Positions 2,585-26,873 of a stretch of 30,509 nt of DNA are shown one piece after another. Made by a program: the position numbers and the translations under genes. Positions within the stretch are counted from its first letter, which is position 1; every line of letters begins with the position of its first letter. The notes below the pieces were generated by a model. It was not told the DNA's origin and did no database searches. It worked only from the letters and a program-made list of their open reading frames with translations. This DNA comes from Alloascoidea hylecoeti (taxonomy: Eukaryota). Where the stretch lies: contig BCKZ01000008.1 of the NCBI GenBank assembly GCA_001600815.1, positions 806,001 through 836,509 of the forward strand. The letters run 5' to 3'.

Positions 2585-2656
2585 GGCCGTGTGGTCTAGT
2601 GGTATGATACTCGCTTTGGGTGCGAGTGGCCCTGGGTTCAATTCCCAGCTCGGCCC
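2585..2656 (+). tRNA. tRNA-Pro (anticodon TGG), intronless
   Basis: GGCCGTGTGGTCTAGTGGTATGATACTCGCTTTGGGTGCGAGTGGCCCTGGGTTCAATTCCCAGCTCGGCCC folds as a cloverleaf with A box, B box (GGTTCAATTCC) and anticodon stem CTCGC/GCGAG. A T5 run at about 2664-2668 could be the Pol III terminator. Confidence 0.97.
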
Positions 2657-7394: not shown

Positions 7395-8285
7395 CAACCA
7401 ACCACTAAATATTTGACAAGACCTTGAACTGTTCCCAAAGTAGTGTTTCTTGGATAGTAGAAATTCTATTAGACTATTATACACTGACATTTCAAATTTA
7501 GTATTTAGTGTTGGGGCCCTTAACGCTATAATCGGCCGTCAGAGAGTTAATTAGATTATCAATATTAATGATATCCTGATCAACGAGGTGCCAGTATTTT
7601 GAAAGAGACATGAGCATTAAGTATTTCTTTACAACATATGGAAGGCTCATAATTCCACCCTGTGATGAACTTGTTAAGAGGAGATTCCACATGCGTTCAA
7701 TTGGATTCAAGACCACTGAAAAAGGCGGCCACTCCAACACTTCTATCTCGTTGCCACGAAACCAATTCACAATGATATTAGCATTATGGATAAATGTGTT
7801 ATCCTGATGTCATGGTTGTGGAGTATATACTTTTCCAAATCGATCCGGATCGTGTAACGACCGAACATTCGTCACTACATACAACATCCCAAATGTCATG
7901 AGACCACTCTAATCTAACTTTAGACAATACCATTCTATTCATTTGGTTCTTCTGATTCAGATAAGACCATTTGCATGCCGAAAATATTCCATATTCATGT
8001 TCTTACAGAAGGGTTTATAAGCGGTATTTGATGTTGAAATTTGAAGCCTACTCCTCAACCGTGTTCAAGGGGAGCTTTCATAACCCTCAAAATTTAATTC
8101 ATTTCCCTATCTGTAAGTTGTGTAGGCTTTTTTTTGATTTGAGGAGGTGTTATTCTAGAAGAATTGTTGGTGAATTTCTTGTGAACCACACAGTTGTACA
8201 TGGACTATTAAGCCTTTTGCTTATTTTAAAAATCGTTTAAGTCATGATCCCTCAGATTACAGATTTAGACCCTCTTAGCTGGTTG
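7395..8285 (-). mobile_element. Degenerate Tc1/mariner-superfamily (DD34E) DNA transposon relic, copy 1, internally deleted
   Basis: The minus strand gives WDVVCSDECSV (first D) and QDNTFIH...VLEWPPFSVVLNPIERMW with exactly 34 residues between D and E. Stops and frameshifts elsewhere. Candidate ends TA|CAACCA (7393-7400) and TGGTTG|TA (8280-8287); boundaries tentative. Confidence 0.85.
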
Positions 8286-14996: not shown

Positions 14997-15409
14997 ACAG
15001 ATCTAGAATAATTCCAATTATAAAGTATTTGATACGCTTATAACTCACAATAGCCGAAATTAACCGAACATTGGTAGACCCAGGGAAACATTTAAATTGC
15101 TAATTATAAGCTTCTTTATGTACTCAAAATAGAATCATCTTTTTAAATACATCTGTATACCATAGAATGACTTCAAGAAATTCCATTAAGCAAAATTTCA
15201 CTTAATTGTAATTCTAAAAAGCATTTGCAATATAAATGAACTAAGTGAATTTATAATGTAATCCATATAAACATGGCTTCCCAATTTTTGATATAGATAG
15301 AAGGCTTAATTAATATAATTAATTGATTCTTCAACTAGTACTGCGTAATTCAGAGTGAATAAATATACCAACAACTTTTCTGGTGTAACACCCCCTCAAG
15401 CAGCCGATA

Positions 15410-16320
15410 TGGCTTAATGAAATGGTAGTAAATTGAATTCCTAGGGTTGTAAAATCTCCCCACTTGAATACGTTTGAGGAGTAGACTTAAAAGTTCAACA
15501 TAATTAGAATATCTAAAAATCCTTCTGTGAAAACACGAATATGTAATCTTTTCTCCTTATAAATGACCTTATCTGAATCAGGAGAACTAAATAAGTAGAT
15601 ATGTTATTGTCTGAATATAAATTTGGATGGTCTCATGACAATCAGGATGTTGTATTTAGTGATAATGATGAATGTTCGGTCGTTACTGGATCCATCTGGA
15701 AAGGCATATGCTCCACAATAGTCATACTAAGCCATTGAATCAAAAAATATTTATATTGTAGAGAAATCTGAGTCTCTAAGTGTTATAGTATGGACTAAAT
15801 TTGGAAAGGAAGCCGTACTTCACTGAGCTCGAGTGGTTGGCGTTCCCAACAAGCCACACCACAAGTTTATACTTAGAACTTTTGTAAAAAACCTTTGATG
15901 AGATTCCTAAAGTGGCTCATATTCATGCAGGATAATACACCAATTCATAAAGCTAGAATAACAATGGGTCGATATCGCCAGAAGAAGATAGAGGCGTTAG
16001 AGTGAGGTCCCTTTTCACTGCATCTAAATCCAATCGAACACATGTAGAACATCCTTAAAAATGTTTATCCCACAGACTGTAATTACGATTATGAAACTTC
16101 CACACGGTGTAAAAAGGAAGAAATATGATATGGGTCAGTATATCATTGATAAGCTGATTGATTCCATACTTCGTGGAAGGGACTGTCTATGGAGTTAAGG
16201 GCTCTTACACTAAATACTATTTGAAATGTCATTTTATATAGTCTAATAGAATCTCTAGAATTTGTGGAACAGTATACAATATTTCAAGAGCAGTTTAAGG
16301 TTTTGTAGACTATTCGTAAA
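15410..16320 (+). mobile_element. Degenerate Tc1/mariner-superfamily (DD34E) DNA transposon relic, copy 2
   Basis: DVVFSDNDECSV and FMQDNTPIHKARIT...ALE*GPFSLHLNPIEHM* with D-34-E spacing. Aligns by eye with the reverse complement of about 7410-8120, including the 3' non-coding part (CACTAAATACTA..TTTGAAATGTCA..TAGTCTAATAGAAT). Boundaries approximate. Confidence 0.85.
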
Positions 16321-17269: not shown

Positions 17270-18461
17270 ATTATGTTAATATTATGCCAATGTTATCTAT
17301 CTCTGTTGGTATATATGTTTATATTTAATCTAAATATTAATACAACTATTTATAAGAAAAAATTGCTGATTATATAATTTTATCTCGGTAAAAAGAAAGC
17401 GCCGAGCTCAATCCCTGTTGTATGCTATAGCTATAACTTACAAATATTATAAGATTTTAAAAAAATGCCAATTTATAATAATATCCCCGTTAATATTGAC
17501 ATTAATATTAATACATTTGGTAACCAGTTATAAACTGTCCAAGTCTACTATTTTTCTTTCCCACCTCATTAGAAAACCATGATATTTAAAATAAGTCTCG
17601 TTATTAACCTTTTTATTTCGAACGTGAAAATCTGAGTCAACATAACTTAAACAACGCTCGGAGTGGTTAGAATCCGACCTTATACAGCTAACAATGTCAC
17701 ATCCTGTATAAGTATCTTGTAATATGTGAATTGATTCCTTTTTTGCCTTTTTATTAATATCTTCCTCACTCGCGTGTGACCTTCCATGAATGCTCTCACG
17801 TATATGATTCTTACATATCCTCATTAACCGTTTTAAAAAAATATCATCACAACGTATTCTGGAGAACCCAGGATGATGAATATAATATCTGTGACAACCT
17901 ATAATTGCGTGCTCAAAATCAATTTTGGTTATCTCCCAATTACCATCTCTCTATTTATATTGAAAAAATGAAGATTGTTAGAAAAACATGTGTAATTTTT
18001 ATGGTTAATATAAGAATAGTTGCCGAGATCTTCCAATCTCAATTGCAATATCAATCGAACTTACCATATTTATATCTGTCGGTTTCATTTCAAATAAAAC
18101 TTCTCCGACATTGCATTCTTTACAGCAGTATCTTGTTTTCGAAGAATTCCTCCCAGGTGTATTTAGTACTTTAAAGTAAACCCTGTGTTGAACAGTGAAA
18201 TATAACCAACATGAGAATAACAACCAATATTTTGTACAGCAAAATGAACCAACTTTAATTTTAAAGTGAGAAAGACAATGTTTGATCCAAGTTCGAGGAG
18301 ATTCATGATCATATCTATGATCAGAGAGATAGGATTCCAATGTGTATGGGTAAAGTTCCATCTTTGGTTAGCTATGGTATATAAGTCTTGAGCTTTGAAG
18401 TTTGATGAAGAGATGGGAATCTATGAATATATATACACCTTTATAATCTTTATAATGTATG
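17270..18461. repeat. 1.2 kb direct repeat, copy A (pairs with 25691-26873)
   Basis: Collinear at offset 8421. I count 13 substitutions plus one 9-bp tandem duplication (CTTTATAAT) near the right end. Confidence 0.97.
17528..18361 (-). CDS. Family member A: 239-aa two-exon protein (18361-18065, 17950-17528) with a MuDR/FAR1-like Zn DNA-binding domain
   Basis: A phase-0 114-nt intron (GTAAGT, CTAAC, TAG) joins the two ORF-track pieces in frame: ...IKVGSFCCTK..WLYFTVQHRVYFKV...RYCCKEC...NM|RDGNWEITKIDFEHAIIGCH...ILQDTYTG...SYVD. The domain call is by motif resemblance. Confidence 0.8.
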
Positions 18462-18679
18462 CATTTATGTACACCACCCCAAAATGGCAATATTATGAAA
18501 ATATTAATTATATAGTTGTTATTTTAACAAATTAAAAACTAGGGACTTAACATCAGCTTTAGAGTTAAATTTAAATTCTTTAAATAATTTTAGATTATCT
18601 AAATTCCGAATTTGTGAAATCTTCATTAATTGAAATGATTTTATCATTTACTACTTCGGTACCTATTCGTAGTAGTATC

Positions 18680-19175
18680 AAACGATCTATTGGTTTAAAA
18701 AAAATCTGGTAATTTCCAAATTATACAAGATTCATCCCATGAACCAGAAACCAAATATTTATCATTAATATTCATACAACTAATACCACGTAAATGAGAT
18801 TTAATATATGATAATTCTGAAATCTTATGAGTTTTTAGTGAAGCTCCTAAAACTCTTAAACACTGAAAAGTTTCATTATCCCAAATTCTTACTGTACAAT
18901 CTTCTGAACCAGTTAAAATCCAGTTTTTATAAAATTGAACACAAGTTGTTTTTGCAGAATGACCACTTAATATATGCCGTGAAAATTTACTATTTTTCCA
19001 ATTTGATTCTAAAATATAACTTTTTTTATATAACTCATACCATGAGTCAGTTTCTGAATCGTCATTGTAGTATTTTCAAGTTTTTGATCTCTAAACTTTG
19101 CTCTCCATATATCATCATCTTCAGCTATTTGTTTCCATGATTTTGAAACTCTTCTACAAGTGACTAAAGTTTTTA
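18680..19175 (-). pseudogene. F-box/WD40 (beta-TrCP/Fwd1/Met30-like) pseudogene fragment
   Basis: Across frameshifts the minus strand reads TCRRVSKSWKQIAEDDDIWR (end of F-box), WYELYKKSYILESNWKNSKFSRHILSGH, TCVQFYKNWILTGSEDCTVRIWD and LVSGSWDESCIIWK (WD40 repeats). Truncated at both ends. Confidence 0.85.
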
Positions 19176-19856
19176 GTTACAAGTCTGAGTTGTGTGTGCC
19201 CAGAGAGGAAGTTGTTGGAAGCCCGTTGCATATATATTACTGTCGTAATATTTGATGTAATGCAACATACAAAATGATACACCTGTATAACTTTATAGGC
19301 CTACCTTATAAGGCCTTATAAGGCCTCATATAGCTAGCAGTTAATAGAATATTCTACGTCATTACTAACAGATAGTGAGTGCACCGAGGATCTCACGACA
19401 CCGAATATGAATTAGAGTTGCTAATTATCATTTTCTCAACTTAATTCTTATTTAATTTTCGCCAACCCTGTTGTTTGAATCCTTTTCAATCTAAAATAAA
19501 GGCCTAGAGATCATTAACTCTCTAGTCATAGCTCTAATCAATGGCTAAAAAGCTATATACCGAACAAACGTTAGACCTATAGGTTCATACAGAGGTGTAG
19601 ACTATAGAGACTCTATTATGAGATATATAATTGTGGTTATGGATTTATATTCAGACATACTTTCTCTTGGTTTAAATATTACATGATTTTAATTTTCATT
19701 GAATGATCTTTGATACAACATTATATATTATTTTTTGTTGTTAACTTTCTTTTCATTTGTAAGCTTAAGGATATACATGTATGTATCTTCTAAAGGAAGA
19801 CTTGAATTCAAACTATAAGTTATAGGCCTATATAGAACTAAGTCTTTTTATTATAA

Positions 19857-21782
19857 TTACCATTTACGTCCTTGTTGTAACAATGTATTATAATCAATAC
19901 ATTGACACTCTTTTACAATCCGATTCCTACCATTAACAGGGACAGAACCAAATCCACCATTCCAACCGAATGGAGAAGGACCCCAAACAGGGAAATAGCA
20001 AAGTTCATTCCATTTACATTTCTTATCGCATTGATAAAACACAGACCAATCCAAAGCATTTAACACGTCTCTTATATATTTTGAATGATGTAAAATATCT
20101 TCATGAAATTCCTTTGTATTTAAAGAACCATCAACATATTTAGAAACCAAGATATCTTTTGAAAGTTGAAAGACTGAGAATATCTCATCAACTAAAAATT
20201 CAGTTACCTTAACAACTGAAGACCAAATTAATAACTCTGATTTTGTTTCAATTGGATATCTTGGATGTGAATATTCATAAATGCAAGCATCTTTTGCCTT
20301 CAAAATTTGCTCAGTTTTATCCTTAATATTATGATCACTAAACCTTCTCACAAAATTATATGTGAATGTAGAAATATTCTTTGCAGCTGTTATCACTGAA
20401 TCATCATAATCTACTGAATTAGCAATATTTTCTTCAAAGGAGGTGAAAGTACTATTTAAAATTGATAAAATTGGAGCAAATTTGTAAATCATTGAATCAG
20501 TAACACGACGCCAATCCGTACCAGCTGATGGATCAAAAGGACCTTTTCTTAAAGCAACTTCTAAATCAGATATCATATCTTCTTTAATGTCATTTGAAAT
20601 ATTAGAAATTCTTCTAAGATATGGATCTGGTAAAACAAATGTCCTATTTATTGCAGTTACCATTCTTCTAAAATCTAATTCAATTCTTGGATCTCCATCA
20701 TAACTCATACCACCTGCTCTTAAGTGATCATATTCAGTCATTACATGCCAGAGACTAAGTATATCAGCTCTTTCCTTTGTAATATTTTGAACTTGACTAT
20801 TACCTGTGCTGGTAATCAATGTATTCTGTGAATACTTATTACTTGGAATTAAACCGTTATCCTCATTATCATTATGGTGATCTGTATAAATGAATTCTAA
20901 CTCCTCTTGAGGAAATCCACCAAATTCAGTAGCATTAACAAACGTAATATTTGAAATTAATTCAAGTTTTTCACTTTTAAAATCACAAATTATAATCTCA
21001 AACCCAATTTCTAATCTAATTACACCATCTAATCCAAATGGTTTACCCCATTTGCATATTTCTCGTGCAGCTTCACGTTCATTAACATATGTCTTATTAG
21101 GATCACCTCGTGATAAAATTAATTGTGTATCCATTTCACCGGTTTTTGTTTTTGCTGCACTTGCACCATCTAAAAGAATTAATTTATCAAGATTTCTTTT
21201 GACTCTGAAAGTGAATAAAGCCGATTCTCCACCAAAGAAATCAAAGGGGGGCTTTTTATCTTTTGATGGTTTTCTATCATTCGTATGATCGTGAGGACCA
21301 TCACCTGGTGGTGGACCACCTGGACCACCTGGATGTGAGCCATTTGGATGTGGACCGGGACCCATTCCTCTTCTGAATCCACTTCTAAATGAATATGAGA
21401 ATTCAGCATCCATAGCAATCCATTCTGGTGAAGATGGAAACTCTAGACCACCTTTTGAATGGTATAATAAGGTTCCTTCTGGGATAAAAGCTGGGATAAT
21501 TGATACACCAACTGGATTCAAGTCACTGCCCTTTTGCTTTAAAGCATTATTAATCGTATTGAAGACCGATGTGGCATTCTCGAATGTGATCGGAGATAGA
21601 TGATCTCTGAAATTAGTTAATGTTATTTGCAGTTTATCTCGAGAGTGATGTTCATGTTTGCCATGTCTTGGGTTATGCCATGGGCCGAATTCAGTGTTTC
21701 GTAATACAGGCCACCAAAAATAAATAAGTATAACGATGATACTAGTAGCCACCGAAACCGATCCAGCAAGAGTCTGTCTCAT
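19857..21782 (-). CDS. Uncharacterised membrane-anchored protein of the S. cerevisiae YOR389W/YPL277C family
   Basis: N-terminal TM segment and motifs PVGVS..PA.IP.GTL.YH, EWIAMDAEFSYSF, a Gly/Pro-rich insert, LDGASAAKT..GEMDTQL and ICKWGKPFGLDG.IR.E.GFE...CDF, recognised from memory of Yor389w. Confidence 0.85.
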   Translation of the reverse strand: MRQTLAGSVSVATSIIVILIYFWWPVLRNTEFGPWHNPRHGKHEHHSRDKLQITLTNFRDHLSPITFENATSVFNTINNALKQKGSDLNPVGVSIIPAFIPEGTLLYHSKGGLEFPSSPEWIAMDAEFSYSFRSGFRRGMGPGPHPNGSHPGGPGGPPPGDGPHDHTNDRKPSKDKKPPFDFFGGESALFTFRVKRNLDKLILLDGASAAKTKTGEMDTQLILSRGDPNKTYVNEREAAREICKWGKPFGLDGVIRLEIGFEIIICDFKSEKLELISNITFVNATEFGGFPQEELEFIYTDHHNDNEDNGLIPSNKYSQNTLITSTGNSQVQNITKERADILSLWHVMTEYDHLRAGGMSYDGDPRIELDFRRMVTAINRTFVLPDPYLRRISNISNDIKEDMISDLEVALRKGPFDPSAGTDWRRVTDSMIYKFAPILSILNSTFTSFEENIANSVDYDDSVITAAKNISTFTYNFVRRFSDHNIKDKTEQILKAKDACIYEYSHPRYPIETKSELLIWSSVVKVTEFLVDEIFSVFQLSKDILVSKYVDGSLNTKEFHEDILHHSKYIRDVLNALDWSVFYQCDKKCKWNELCYFPVWGPSPFGWNGGFGSVPVNGRNRIVKECQCIDYNTLLQQGRKW

Positions 21783-22114
21783 TATCTAACTGGTAATTAC
21801 AGCTTACAAGCGCAGCTATTTGTAATCGGCGGAATATGAAATAGGTTTGAAAATCTAAGCCATGTCTCTTAGGGGCTGAGATATCGGGGTTAAGCCCAAT
21901 TAGACACGCACTGCACGTGACAGATAACAATGGAGGCTTAAACCCAAGGAAAAGCATTCAGAACTTCCGGAAAATACTAGTTTATATATATCTTTATTAC
22001 CGCCATAATAAAAACACAAAATTTAAAACATTTTTTAAAAATTTTCAAAATTTTTTATTGTCTATATAAAATATGCTTATATTTAATAAGATACAGGAGA
22101 ATGTGATAGTTTTT

Positions 22115-22535
22115 TTTTATCGATTTTAGAAGCCTTTGGTGTTGTTCAGCACGTAGGATACCTCGTAAACATGGAGGCATGTTCTCCGCATAATTCACCA
22201 TTTCCATGATTTAATCGATGTAACGTAAGAATATGTACAAACTTGTGAATTCCCCTCACATCTGGCTCAACTCTAGAAGATGATCCATCCAAGTTTCGAG
22301 TGAATTGAGTGATTTACGTGGCCTTAGCACATCTATGAAATAGTGCCGATAGGACTCAACCATATGCAGCAGATGAGCAGCCTTTTCCTCAGAAATTGAA
22401 TATTATTCCACAATATCGCTAACCAGTTCATATATTTTGTTTGTCAGCCTTTCCAATGAGATATTCCATGTGATAGATCGTATTTTCAATAGGTTGTGCT
22501 TTTCCTTCACGACACTTCTTAAAAACTTTATTTGG
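22115..22535 (-). pseudogene. Possible degenerate coding relic of unknown origin
   Basis: One frame reads about 140 helical-looking codons broken by only three stops (IKFLRSVVKEKHNLL...VE*YSISEEKAAHLLHMVESY...). GC is higher than in the flanks. Confidence 0.3.
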
Positions 22536-22620
22536 ATAGAATGGCAATCTTAGAGTTATAGTGAGAGGGCCACTCAAAATGAACAACACTTAGGAAAAAA
22601 AAAATTAACATCCTCACAGG

Positions 22621-22804
22621 AAACGTGACCCTCCACCAAAATCACTTTAAGTATATATTAAGTAAGACAGAAGGCAGATAAATGGCAAATATGAACAAAG
22701 CTGTTCTTTCGAATTAGATTTTGTACTTCTCTGTCAAATTATTTGTCCCTATTTCTTAACTATTAGTATGGCGAAATTTGGAGGCCGTGTACAGGGTCAC
22801 GTTT
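22621..22804. repeat. Perfect 12-bp inverted repeat pair AAACGTGACCCT / AGGGTCACGTTT enclosing 160 bp
   Basis: Arms at 22621-22632 and 22793-22804. Confidence 0.6.
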
Positions 22805-23399
22805 GCATTTAATCACCTGCATTACATGTAAAATAAACCATACTATATCTAGATGAGTGCATGCAAATGTATGCTGTGATATTTCCTCATGGCGTAGTAA
22901 GTACAGTTGCATGCACATTATCTAAAGAGCAGAATTTCGGGTGAACAGTTTGAGTGACGGGCACATAACTATATGTTGATTAGATAATGCTTATATAAGT
23001 AACGGAGTCTATAATGTTTGGTTATTGAAAATTAAGCTAAACCCACTCGGCCCGATATATTATAATATAATACGATACATACGTATTATAATTATGTTGT
23101 GTTTGAAAATTCTGCATCACATCAAATAATGAAATAAAAGCTTGAATTTTTCTCAGTATCGTGTGACGGTTTTATAGTGCTACCAGTATACGAATTATTT
23201 CTTGAAACAAATCATTTTTAGGTTCAACAACAACAATTTAAAATTAAGTCATTTGAATAAGGTGTTTAAATTCATTTTTTTTGTAGTAGTTAACATATAC
23301 TTACATCATAAATCCATTAACTTACTATAGCTAGGTAGCAATATTTTTTGATTCCGATATTCTTATAATTACATATAACTAATCCTTGGCAGTTTCAAA

Positions 23400-24211
23400 T
23401 CACATTATTATTCCTGAATTTGATTCCTCATGCACTACTCTCTTCACCATTCTTGCAAACTGGGATCTATTTTTTTCAAGTTCTGAATACTCGGTGGAAC
23501 TACACCTTTTTTCCTTTATTCTAAATCCATCGGCAATATCAACGTATGAATAATGATTTACTTCACGTCCGCAAACCTTCCCGAAATAAATATCTTGTAG
23601 AATGTAAATAACTGTATCTTTGGTGTCTGTGTTACTTCTTATTGTCATTTTCCTTTCATGTTCAATTACTGTTTGAAGCAGATCGAAAATATAACCGCAT
23701 CTTTTGCGAGCACTATCTTCATATAAAGTTCTTATACTGTGAGTAGGAGTGTGTTGAAGACTAACAATATACCATTTCTATAATTATATTTATAATAATG
23801 AGTTAGATAATTGCAATAAAAAGAAAAAAGAAAAAACTTACATACCTCTTCTTCGTGTGCAGAGTCTGGTTTTCCAGCAAATATACTGTTTTTAATTCCT
23901 GTATTTTGAGAGCACTGTTTACAATAATACTCAAATTTTCCATTTGAAGATGTTTTCAAAGATCTTAAATTAACTTTCTGTTTTGCCGTTAGATATAACC
24001 ACGATAAGTACTGCAGTTCTCCCCTTGTATTGCAAGAATCTCCGACTTGTAGCACCAAATGATTTAAACATCTTTGAAACCAAGATCTTGTGTTTTCATT
24101 CTGGTATCTCATTTGAGTTCCATATTCGAGAATAGTTTCGAGGTTATGAGGATTGTAAGGTCTTGGGATTGGTCCTGGATCGTTGATCAGTTGGGATATT
24201 TTGATGGACAT
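23400..24211 (-). CDS. Family member B: divergent 247-aa two-exon paralogue (24211-23846, 23777-23400)
   Basis: Phase-0 68-nt intron (GTATGT, CTAAC, TAG). RSWFQRCLNHLVLQVGDSCNTRGELQYLSWLYLT...YYCKQC...EEE|KWYIVSLQHTPTH...ILQDIYFG...YSYVD aligns motif by motif with member A. Confidence 0.8.
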
Positions 24212-24649
24212 AGTTAAGATATGAATTATGTGTCTTTTCTACGCTTTAGTTTTCAGTCCGAGGTGACCATTAATTATTGCAACCGTTATTAATGTATATC
24301 TGTTATTAGTAATGGCTATGAGTGGGCTCAAAAAAGAACATGGAAGTATATCTGCAGAAAAATAAAGAAAGACAAAAAGAAGCATCAATCACTTAAATAT
24401 ATAAATATGTATTGAATTACAGTTTCTCCCGTCAAATCATACCAATTTGGAAACATATATCGAGGCTAAACGGAGACAAGCTGACTGAAAAGTTTGTAAT
24501 ACAACCTGCATACAAGATTTTAATGACTTTGTATCAGTTACTCATGATCATAACGTAAGCTGCTGTTTATGGGTATTAAAAGGTATCATTCAAATTTCTT
24601 TTGGATATATAACCACAGCTCAATCAGTGCCCTTTAAACTATATTTGCT

Positions 24650-25418
24650 AGGTATACCCTGTCCTATATAGTAAAAGCACCGGAAGATTTAATTTTTTAT
24701 ACACTATGAAGGGAGATTTCCACAAGGACAAGTCGAGGAGTGTCTTAAACATATGTGGCATGAATTTGGCAGTATTACAACCAGGGACTAGCTGGAAGGT
24801 TGCATCATACATATATTTATTTATAGGCCTATATAAATACTTAAATGCAACCCTCACAACTTATGCAAAACAGTGGTTAAACATCTTAAAAACAGCGATG
24901 TCGGTCATTTCTAACCATTCAACTGAATTTTCTCTTTGATACTTTCTATATTTATAAACTTCTATAAAGTTTTATTTAATCTTGCCGATAATTTCAATTG
25001 GAAATACAACCCAATTTAATATCTTGATGTATACTTGCAATTGTAATGGGACGTCGGGCTTTCAAAAGTAATTATATTATTCCAAATTACAAAATATTGA
25101 AGCCACTTCCGGATCCTATGATGCCTTGGTATTATATTTACGTAATATTGTAATTTTTTCTTTAGTTTATTACTCATAAACTATATCTCTTCTGGAATAA
25201 ATAGCAGTGTAATTAAATTATTTACCCACTTACTCTTTACTTGTGTAGATATATATCACTCGCAACAAAATTGCCAGTGATGAGCTTGATATACCTTCAA
25301 ATTATATACAGGTGCCTGTCTTATATGTTTCAATGAACATTCCGGAAACGTGTCTACGTACAATCCAGATCTTATAGCAAGAAATATAATGCTACCATAT
25401 GGAAACCCCCGTAAATGA
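24650..25418 (+). pseudogene. Family member C: probable degenerate fourth paralogue, opposite strand
   Basis: HYEGRFPQGQVEECLKHMWHEFGSITTRD*LE (24702-24797) versus RYDHESPRTWIKHCLSHFKIKVG and CLNHLVLQVGDSCNTRGELQ. TATGCAAAACAGTGG resembles the YCKQC codons. YTGACLICFNEHSGNVSTYNPDLIARN (25305-25385) versus YTGCDIVSC..HSERCLSYVDSDFHVRN. Confidence 0.55.
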
Positions 25419-25690
25419 CTGTACATGTCGAATATGTATTGAACCAGTCAGGATGATGATGATCATAACTGAAATTCTATTAAATAGGTAATTATAGCAT
25501 ATATTTATAATATTCCTAACTTTTTTTTTTTAACCTATGCAGCAGCTTCTAGAAACGAAAATTGGGTGCGGCTGAAAATTTAAGTTTATAAATGATTTTA
25601 ATTATATAAACGTTAACTTAATTAGCCCTATTGTAACTAATTGGGATTTATTCACTTTTGGTTTATATATTATTATTAACTTAATATTAT

Positions 25691-26873
25691 ATTATGTTAA
25701 TATTATGCCAATGTTATCTATCTCTGTTGGTATATATGTTTATATTTAATCTAAATATTAATACAACTATTTATAAGAAAAAATTGCTGATTATATAATT
25801 TTATCTCGGTAAAAAGAAAGCGCCGAGCTCAATCCCTGTTGTATGCTATAGCTATAACTTACAAATATTATAAGATTTTAAAAAAATGCCAATTTATAAT
25901 AATATCCCCGTTAATATTGACATTAATATTAATACATTTGGTAACCAGTTATAAACTGTCCAAGTCTGCTATTTTTCTCTCCCACCTCATTAGAAAACCA
26001 TGATATTTAAAATAAGTCTCGTTATTAACCTTTTTATTTCGAACGTGAAAATCTGAGTCAACATAACTTAAACAACGCTCGGAGTTGTTAGAATCCGACC
26101 TTATACAGCTAACAATGTCACATCCTGTATAAGTATCTTGTAATATGTGAATTGATTCCTTTTTTGCCTTTTTATTAATATCTTCTTCACTTGCGTGTGA
26201 CCTTCCATGAATGCTCTCACGTATATGATTCTTACATATCCTCATTAACCGTTTCAAAAAAATATCATCACAACGTATTCTGGAGAACCCAGGATGATGA
26301 ATATAATATCTGTGACAACCTATAATTGCGTGCTCAAAATCAATTTTGGTTATCTCCCAATTACCATCTCTCTATTTATATTGAAAAAATGAAGATTGTT
26401 AGAAAAACATGTGTAATTTTTATGGTTAATATAAGAATAGTTGCCGAGATCTTCCAATCTCAATTGCAATATCAATCGAACTTACCATATTTATATCTGT
26501 CGGTTTCATTTCAAATAAAACTTCTCCGACATTGCATTCTTTACAGCAGTATCTTGTTTTCGAAGAATTCCTCCCAGGTGTATTTAGTACTTTAAAGTAA
26601 ACCCTGTGTTGAACAGTGAAATATAACCAACATGAGAATAACAAGTCATTTTTTGTACAGCAAAATGAACCAACTTTAATTTCAAAGTGAGAAAGACAAT
26701 GTCTGATCCAAGTTCGAGGAGATTCATGATCGTATCTATGATCAGAGAGATAGGATTCCAATGTGTATGGGTAAAGTTCCATCTTTGGTTAGCTATGGTA
26801 TATAAGTCTTGAGCTTTGAAGTTTGATGAAGAGATGGGAATCTATGAATATATATACACCTTTATAATGTATG
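25691..26873. repeat. 1.2 kb direct repeat, copy B (pairs with 17270-18461)
   Basis: Near-identical to copy A, as described there. Confidence 0.97.
25949..26782 (-). CDS. Family member A': 239-aa two-exon protein (26782-26486, 26371-25949), near-identical to member A
   Basis: Same intron and frame as 17528-18361, with six amino-acid differences (K/R, K/E, Y/N, W/D, H/N, V/A). Confidence 0.8.

Follow-up and report, generated by a model that had tools for sequence, protein, structure and literature searches.

Three small two-exon genes, here called A, B and C, lie in a 30,509-nucleotide (nt) stretch of DNA from Alloascoidea hylecoeti (contig BCKZ01000008.1, positions 806,001 to 836,509 of the forward strand; the whole stretch is referred to below as the window, and all positions are counted from its first letter), and they belong to a protein family that is very rare, fungal (yeast-type) and previously undescribed. 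On present comparisons we lean slightly towards the view that A, B and C are intact paralogues within this rare family and encode regulators, whose shared core would be a zinc-dependent, sequence-specific DNA-binding domain. That the genes and their family are real is close to certain, with the gene models resting on sequence comparison and expression being predicted. A WRKY-GCM1-like zinc DNA-binding domain in the conserved core is plausible, if unproven.

Genes A, B and C

The exons and introns of the three genes are arranged as follows.

17528-18361, minus strand: gene A, two exons, 239 amino acids
18065..18361, minus strand: gene A exon 1, 99 amino acids, ATG at 18361
17951..18064, minus strand: gene A intron, 114 nt, phase 0, with a GTAAGT 5' site, a TTCTAAC branch-point-like motif and an AG 3' site
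17528..17950, minus strand: gene A exon 2, 140 amino acids (17950-17531) and stop codon
23400-24211, minus strand: gene B, two exons, 247 amino acids
23846..24211, minus strand: gene B exon 1, 122 amino acids
23778..23845, minus strand: gene B intron, 68 nt, phase 0, with GTATGT, ATCTAAC and AG
23400..23777, minus strand: gene B exon 2, 125 amino acids (23777-23403) and stop codon
25949-26782, minus strand: gene C, two exons, 239 amino acids
26486..26782, minus strand: gene C exon 1, 99 amino acids
26372..26485, minus strand: gene C intron, 114 nt, the same as the gene A intron (0 differences)
25949..26371, minus strand: gene C exon 2, 140 amino acids (26371-25952) and stop codon

An earlier note on this DNA, made from its letters alone, had described three intact two-exon genes of 239, 247 and 239 amino acids; all were found at these positions on the minus strand, and the splice junctions it proposed (18065/17950 and 23846/23777) are exact in the sequence. 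The introns are all of phase 0 and carry yeast-type splice signals. That of gene A contains in-frame stops, and the exon 2 frame of gene B can be reached by splicing only, since the 68 nt of intron are not divisible by 3.

The most direct support for the gene models comes from a profile hidden Markov model (HMM) built from six external full-length homologues alone and run on the 1244 six-frame open reading frames (ORFs) of the window. It matches all six exons, in collinear order, at E values from 5.5e-24 to 1e-3: for exon 1, 5.5e-24 in B, 9.1e-17 in C and 1.3e-14 in A (the last at HMM positions 99-187), and for exon 2, 5.8e-16 in B (positions 239-333), 9e-4 in C and 1e-3 in A (positions 207-308). 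No other ORF among the 1244 fell below E=1. The distance from the second Cys of a conserved pair to a conserved Trp, which spans the exon junction, is 20 and 23 residues in the spliced models and 23-27 residues in contiguous homologues, and the two-exon models are well supported by comparison because those homologues bridge the junction with similar spacing. In three metatranscriptome runs from the same study, next to none of the sampled window words were present.

The same note had proposed a cluster of four members within 9.3 kb, the fourth a probable pseudogene. The three genes stand, and the fourth member is not confirmed: tblastn and two exon HMMs found none in the window. What there is consists of a single weak family-HMM match between B and C.

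24989..25168, minus strand: what may remain of a fourth copy's N-terminal part, decayed and with an in-frame stop

With 6.9 bits, and an E value of 0.22 for the window, this match was outscored by one of 1000 shuffles. As the relic of a fourth copy it is possible, judged by sequence likeness that is weak at best, and it is not counted here as a finding.

The family outside this genome

Searched against 1,835,955,588 representative proteins at a cut-off of E<=1e-3, the exon-1 profile returned 10 matches (P0001 to P0010), none of which carries a source name. P0001 is the window's own gene B exon 1 ORF, continued into the intron. Six others (P0003, P0005, P0006, P0007, P0008 and P0010; 265-536 amino acids) are contiguous proteins in which a part homologous to exon 1 is followed by a part homologous to exon 2, and with these six contiguous, intron presence seems to vary within the family. 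In P0002, P0004 and P0009 the homology stops nine residues past the C-x2-C motif and is followed by a Val codon and unrelated sequence, a hint of read-through into a GT intron that would lie in the same loop as the window intron, 6-13 residues earlier. Some homologues have long low-complexity N-termini, such as also occur in yeast transcription factors, and A, B and C are short forms comprising the core only.

There are no Pfam domains of note in any exon or homologue, and when 12 family members were run through hmmscan, no Pfam domain recurred at E<=10. Further searches added no members. With a word index that misses members, exon 1 found nothing among longer proteins, the family alignment recovered 4 known rows, and residues 136-417 of P0006 found P0005, P0007 and P0004 only. 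A scan of metagenome loci gave 225 pattern matches with 0 confirmed, the ESM Atlas held no usable match for P0003, whether whole or as residues 48-180, and a literature search with the family motif strings returned nothing relevant. The earlier description of a lineage-specific, undescribed family thus holds in so far as the family is real and has neither Pfam match nor name, but it is not confined to this genome, nine other proteins belonging to it.

Conserved motifs and putative zinc ligands

Conservation was assessed over nine full-length rows, namely A, B, C and the six contiguous homologues. All nine contain P(Y)xL, RxW(F/I), WLY(F/L)T, Y-x-C-x2-C, a Trp-containing strand, a His followed by Cys or His, and ILQDIYxG, and most also have a C-terminal KRQxLMxRM-like helix. 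The pattern C-x2-C-x29-35-H-x3-4-[C/H] is present in eight of the nine, the ninth (P0010) having x7 before the final [C/H], and the Tyr two residues ahead of the first Cys (Y-x-C) is invariant in all rows. The motifs originally read from the window (W-x3-CL-x-H-x4-VG, WLY(F/L)T, YxCK(E/Q)C, W-x-I, H-x3/5-H, ILQDxYxG and SYVD) are likewise all present in A, B and C. One of them does not extend across the family. The Cys of the N-terminal W-x3-CL-x-H is missing in P0009 and P0010 and its His in P0003, and these residues, being unconserved, are therefore not ligands. The three window proteins are basic, with isoelectric points (pI) of 8.4-8.9.

Predicted structure and fold comparison

AlphaFold models were obtained for the homologues P0003 and P0006 from one shallow 12-row family alignment. 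The P0003 model has a predicted local distance difference test score (pLDDT) of 76.8 and a predicted template modelling score (pTM) of 0.75. In blocks of 10 residues its pLDDT is ~86-95 over residues 51-150 (91-95 over 111-140 and 88 over 141-150) and then 74, 94, 66 and 57 over 151-190. The modelled elements run from a helix at 72-83 through a short strand at 'VG' and a helix at 95-109 (WLYFTAK) to a four-stranded sheet (114-121, 127-133, 139-152 and 155-166), a short helix at 170-173 and a C-terminal helical/small-sheet domain, and the order of elements in the P0006 model is the same. In the P0003 model C133 closes strand 127-133 and C136 stands ahead of strand 139-152, and H170, H173 and C174 come after strand 4.

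Each model was compared by full alignment with 48,161 PDB representatives, using a tool that calls Z scores below 8 common; rmsd is the root-mean-square deviation.

P0003 and 4lmg_A (Aft2-DNA): rank 2 of 48,161, Z 5.7, rmsd 4.0, 102/120 aligned
P0006 and 4lmg_A (Aft2-DNA): rank 1 of 48,161, Z 5.0, rmsd 4.3, 106/120 aligned
P0003 and 7z0r_B (AtWRKY18): rank 37, among Foldseek's top 1000 chains, Z 4.3, rmsd 3.8, 74/80 aligned
P0003 and 6j4e_B (AtWRKY1): rank 42, Z 3.9, rmsd 3.3, 58/61 aligned

The Aft2 alignments cover 85-88% of the Aft2 chain, and the result carries weight because the superfamily had been predicted from sequence before any search was made.

The C-terminal domain was also considered as a PD-(D/E)XK nuclease, and this reading was not adopted. 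The sole Pfam pointer is a weak PDDEXK_10 match in P0007 (E 0.016), the restriction enzymes EcoRII, BsaWI and Ecl18kI align at noise-level Z of 3.8-4.7, and the acidic residue of SYVD is unconserved in P0005-P0007.

A putative zinc sheet and what it may do

PMC1702500 sets out what a WRKY-GCM1 fold should contain: its criteria include a four-stranded core, a hydrophobic residue located two positions ahead of the first Cys and two His that end strand 4, and the strand 2/3 turn together with positions past strand 4 defines the zinc site that WRKY-GCM1 and BED domains have in common. Against that description, the predicted structures of P0003 and P0006 have a four-stranded antiparallel sheet, C-x2-C is present in 9/9 rows with C133 and C136 placed by the model at the strand 2/3 turn, and the hydrophobic or aromatic position before the first Cys is taken by the invariant Tyr. 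Agreement is looser for the His ligands, where His and then Cys or His follow in 9/9 rows at 4-8 residues past strand 4, on a short helix, and with x3-7 in place of x1.

On these grounds the core, of ~230 amino acids, would consist of short N-terminal helices, the 'VG' strand, the WLYFTAK helix and a four-stranded antiparallel sheet. Y-x-C-x2-C would sit at the strand 2/3 turn and H-x3-7-[C/H] on a short helix after strand 4, the W-x-I strand, so that the four residues could form a single putative C2-H-(C/H) zinc site on a sheet akin to that of WRKY-GCM1 and Aft2. The basic strand past the WLYFTAK helix would be the likely DNA-contacting element, and for the conserved alpha/beta C-terminal domain (ILQDIYxG...KRQxLMxRM) dimerisation is one possibility. 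A zinc sheet related to those of WRKY-GCM1 and BED domains is, from the models, reasonably likely to form the conserved core, and DNA binding by the family proteins, which is taken from the predicted fold, is modestly favoured; the proteins are probably lineage-restricted DNA-binding regulators.

A number of results weigh against this interpretation. The two models come from the same 12-row alignment and are not independent. Foldseek found nothing in the PDB at E<=1e-3, and the Z scores of 5.0-5.7 for Aft2 tie with those of PheRS-B, other class II aminoacyl-tRNA synthetases (aaRS) and PolG2 fragments (Z 4.8-6.4). Run against PDB sequences, the family profile had 0 matches at E<=10, and the exon-1 profile brought up BMP2 noise only (E ~0.5). 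Among the 12 family members there was no Pfam match at E<=10 to WRKY, GCM, FLYWCH, FAR1, DBD_Tnp_Mut or AFT, nor to zf-BED. The arrangement of C-x2-C with H-x3-7-C/H on a helix differs from the WRKY, MULE (Mutator-like element) and Aft ligand types as given in PMC1702500, namely C-x4-7-C...H-x-H, H-x-C and the 20-70-residue insert. Lastly, P0008 is acidic (pI 5.2). The zinc DNA-binding layout that had been proposed for these genes is therefore upheld in part: the four-stranded sheet, the positions of the Cys and His residues and the Aft2 ranks of 2 and 1 speak for it, and the missing profile link, the low Z and the ligand spacing speak against it.

The more specific assignment to a MULE/FAR1/Aft-type domain fares less well. 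A sequence-profile link to DBD_Tnp_Mut, FAR1, AFT, WRKY or GCM is absent from the Pfam hmmscan at E<=10. As described in PMC1702500, Aft, Rbf1 and FAR1 form an 'insert-containing' family with 20-70 residues inserted between the two Cys, and here the two Cys are 2 residues apart in 9/9 rows; by sequence, and by the definition given there, the present family is not a member of it. With the MULE/FAR1/Aft group as a whole, the family disagrees in the sequence comparisons and in one structural feature that defines the group.

Of the other ways to account for the core, the one that survives best is that it is a zinc-stabilised alpha+beta domain with another function, such as protein or RNA binding, and that its likeness to Aft2 and WRKY reflects a common sheet arrangement. 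The top or tied structural matches are indeed of aaRS type or PolG2 (2rhs_B at Z 6.0, 8f69_A at Z 6.4 and 8s8b_B at Z 4.8), every Z lies below 8, the level called common, and no DNA-binding family gives a profile match. However, the aaRS-type matches are fragments of large chains that have no zinc site, whereas Aft2 is aligned over 85-88% of its chain at ranks 2 and 1 of 48,161, and the Cys and His positions agree with those of the WRKY-GCM1/BED zinc site in PMC1702500. We consider this alternative unlikely.

An expanded BED-type finger, in place of a MULE/FAR1/Aft-type domain, is a second alternative, and the spacing of the putative ligands brings it to mind. BED and C2H2 fingers have the same Cys hairpin, but their His ligands are supplied by a helical stretch (PMC1702500), and the BED finger signature is given as Cx2CxnHx3-5[H/C] in PMC3606216. 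The family pattern C-x2-C...H-x3-4-[C/H] fits that formula in 8/9 rows (P0010 has x7), and the second dyad is on a predicted short helix, as described for BED and C2H2. What separates the family from a BED finger proper is that the 29-35 residues between the dyads are two long strands, which give a four-stranded sheet as in WRKY-GCM1, and that zf-BED found no match at E<=10; there is also no BED structure among the fold matches listed, which is not decisive. An expanded BED-type finger is quite improbable, and the family as modelled seems to stand between BED and WRKY-GCM1, with the BED signature plus two extra long strands. BED fingers are often derived from hAT transposases and draw their His dyad from a helical segment.

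Paralogy and the duplication of genes A and C

Between genes A and B, 33-34% of the residues agree in each of the two exons, a likeness well in excess of chance. Within the window tblastn links their first exons at E 1e-14 to 1e-15 and finds no match between their second exons at E<=10, where the likeness is visible in the alignment and the family HMM only. A maximum-likelihood tree of the nine full-length sequences pairs A with C (100/100) and does not group B with them, and the B branches are as long as those leading to proteins of other genomes, for which reason the A-B split is taken to be old. Purifying selection between A and B, which had been suggested from the retained ORF and intron, is not measurable because the pair is saturated.

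Genes A and C, by contrast with A and B, lie in the two copies of a direct segmental duplication.

17270..18447: copy 1 (gene A), from 258 nt 3' of the stop codon to 86 nt 5' of the ATG
25691..26868: copy 2 (gene C), at an offset of 8421

The copies are 1178 nt long, in direct orientation, and differ by 13 substitutions. The duplication takes in just 86 nt ahead of the ATG, so that A and C do not have the greater part of the promoter in common. The 13 substitutions are confined to the 720 coding nt, with none in the intron and duplicated flanks, which together make up 458 nt (P = 0.0017 at a uniform rate and 0.006 when weighted by G/C sites); at the synonymous rate of 3.8%, ~17 non-coding changes would be expected and 0 are observed. 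Of the differing codons 5 are synonymous and 6 are not, with proportions of synonymous (pS) and nonsynonymous (pN) differences of 0.038 and 0.0135 and a pN/pS of 0.35 drawn from 13 changes only. Four changes are packed into 6 nt (18224-18229) and give Y45N and W46D. Such coding-only divergence might stem from ectopic conversion by paralogues outside the window, or else from an effect of assembly or polishing. The most elaborate proposal, of an undescribed yeast zinc DNA-binding family between BED and WRKY-GCM1/Aft2 that expands by local duplication and owes the exon-only divergence of A and C to ectopic conversion, is a tentative one that we regard as doubtful when taken as a whole.

The two 1.18-kb direct repeats were also considered as the ends of a long terminal repeat (LTR) retrotransposon. 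This was rejected, as the genes are inside the repeats and no reverse transcriptase or integrase ORF is present between the two.

The surrounding DNA and the question of mobility

The window is AT-rich (GC ~30%) and resembles the genome of a yeast-type fungus with few introns. It has long unbroken ORFs for a succinate dehydrogenase flavoprotein (SDH1), a 26S proteasome ATPase-like protein, Yju2 and an amino-acid transporter. A CTG codon at a conserved position of SDH1 pairs with Leu of solved SDHA chains, one codon having been checked, and from this single site the genetic code is likely to be the standard one; an alternative code was set aside because the SDH1 CTG reads as Leu. Gene A has 0 CTG codons and gene B has 3. 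Other features of the window are listed here.

2585-2656, plus strand: tRNA-Pro (TGG) gene
7498-7809: DDE_3 (Tc1/mariner-type) transposase fragment by Pfam, inside 7458-8180
18695-19176, minus strand: F-box/WD40 fragment, with an F-box at 19009-19176 and two WD40 repeats at 18695-19075, in two overlapping frames
19857-21785, minus strand: uninterrupted ORF of 642 amino acids, between genes A and B

The F-box/WD40 stretch (Pfam F-box-like 3e-7 and WD40 1e-13) looks, from its sequence, like a truncated gene fragment, and it stops abruptly ~250 nt upstream of the boundary of the gene A duplication. The stretches 7458-8180 and 15358-16257 are in inverted orientation with respect to one another at 72-85% identity, and the ~7 kb between them carries the housekeeping genes for Yju2, the proteasome ATPase and SDH1. 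The 642-amino-acid ORF has an N-terminal hydrophobic segment and a Gly/Pro/His-rich stretch, and no Pfam match at E<=0.01.

Debris of this kind raises the question of whether A, B and C are themselves passengers or remnants of a mobile element, Mutator-like or another DNA transposon, and so selfish DNA. The several copies within 9.3 kb would suit such an origin, as would the nearby F-box/WD40 fragment and the DDE_3 remnants at 7498-7809 with their inverted partner at ~15358-16257. Nevertheless, no inverted repeats of at least 20 nt flank A, B or C anywhere in the window, the single pair found being inside B exon 1, and the selfish-element role offered earlier gains no support for any copy. The observation that these proteins have no transposase catalytic domain is borne out, there being no Pfam transposase match in any family member, and so neither of the marks of a MULE, a DDE catalytic domain and terminal inverted repeats, is present. 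Moreover, the A/C duplication is direct and plain, no ORF is broken, and distant homologues retain the motifs. A mobile-element origin of the genes is accordingly very improbable, more so than an expanded BED-type finger. Transposase ancestry of the family, descent from Mutator included, draws no support from these results and is rather unlikely, less so than mobility itself. The debris near the genes fits a duplication-prone region and not a demonstrated mobility of A, B or C.

Least probable of all is that A, B, C and their homologues form a remote offshoot of some lineage-restricted DNA-binding family of yeasts that has been described before, such as Wor3. Wor3 of Candida albicans was reportedly described by Lohse et al. 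in 2013 as defining a clade-restricted DNA-binding family with no homology to known DNA-binding domains, and its members are said to be small and yeast-restricted, with low-complexity N-termini and no Pfam domain. The resemblance is one of analogy only, and it is opposed by the facts that none of the 10 family matches is named, that the SDH1 CTG codon reads as Leu, which argues against a host in the CUG-Ser clade, and that a literature search found no paper naming both Wor3 and WRKY.

Significance

If the preferred interpretation of A, B and C as zinc-dependent DNA-binding regulators is true, they would represent a new and very narrowly distributed yeast DNA-binding family, which would join Aft and Rbf1 as late-arising regulators invisible to domain annotation. 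Their ligand arrangement would then be a concrete intermediate of BED and WRKY-GCM1, a link proposed on structural grounds in PMC1702500. ORF-based annotation misses all three genes, the protein collection holding the read-through of gene B exon 1 only, and families of this kind would mean that the regulator counts of non-model yeasts are underestimated.

Comparison with known systems

Among the closest known systems are Aft1/Aft2 (Rcs1), the iron-regulon transcription factors of Saccharomyces (WRKY-GCM1 'insert-containing'). Aft2 (4LMG) is the best-ranking solved structure with regard to both models. Both families are yeast-restricted, and in both the sheet would carry a Cys pair where strand 2 turns into strand 3, a dyad with His past strand 4 and, two positions ahead of the first Cys, a hydrophobic residue. 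They differ in that sequence similarity is undetectable, in that Aft has the 20-70-residue insert between its Cys (so described in PMC1702500) where the A/B/C family has C-x2-C, and in that the A/B/C family has H-x3-7-C/H on a helix and an extra conserved C-terminal alpha/beta domain.

With the DNA-binding domains of MULE transposases and of FAR1 and FHY3 the predicted structures have in common the succession of strand, helix, Cys pair, W-containing strand and His ligands, whereas the profile match, the transposase domain and the inverted repeats are all missing from the A/B/C family. The BED finger, as described in PMC3606216 and PMC1702500, has the same spacing inside each dyad and likewise takes the second dyad from a helical segment; the A/B/C family departs from it in the 29-35-residue, two-strand insert between the dyads, which makes a four-stranded sheet, and in giving no zf-BED match. 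Plant WRKY domains are built on a four-stranded zinc sheet, as is predicted for the A/B/C family, and P0003 aligns with them at 74/80 for AtWRKY18 and 58/61 for AtWRKY1, but the A/B/C family has no WRKYGQK motif, its Cys and His spacing is another, and the Z scores are low.

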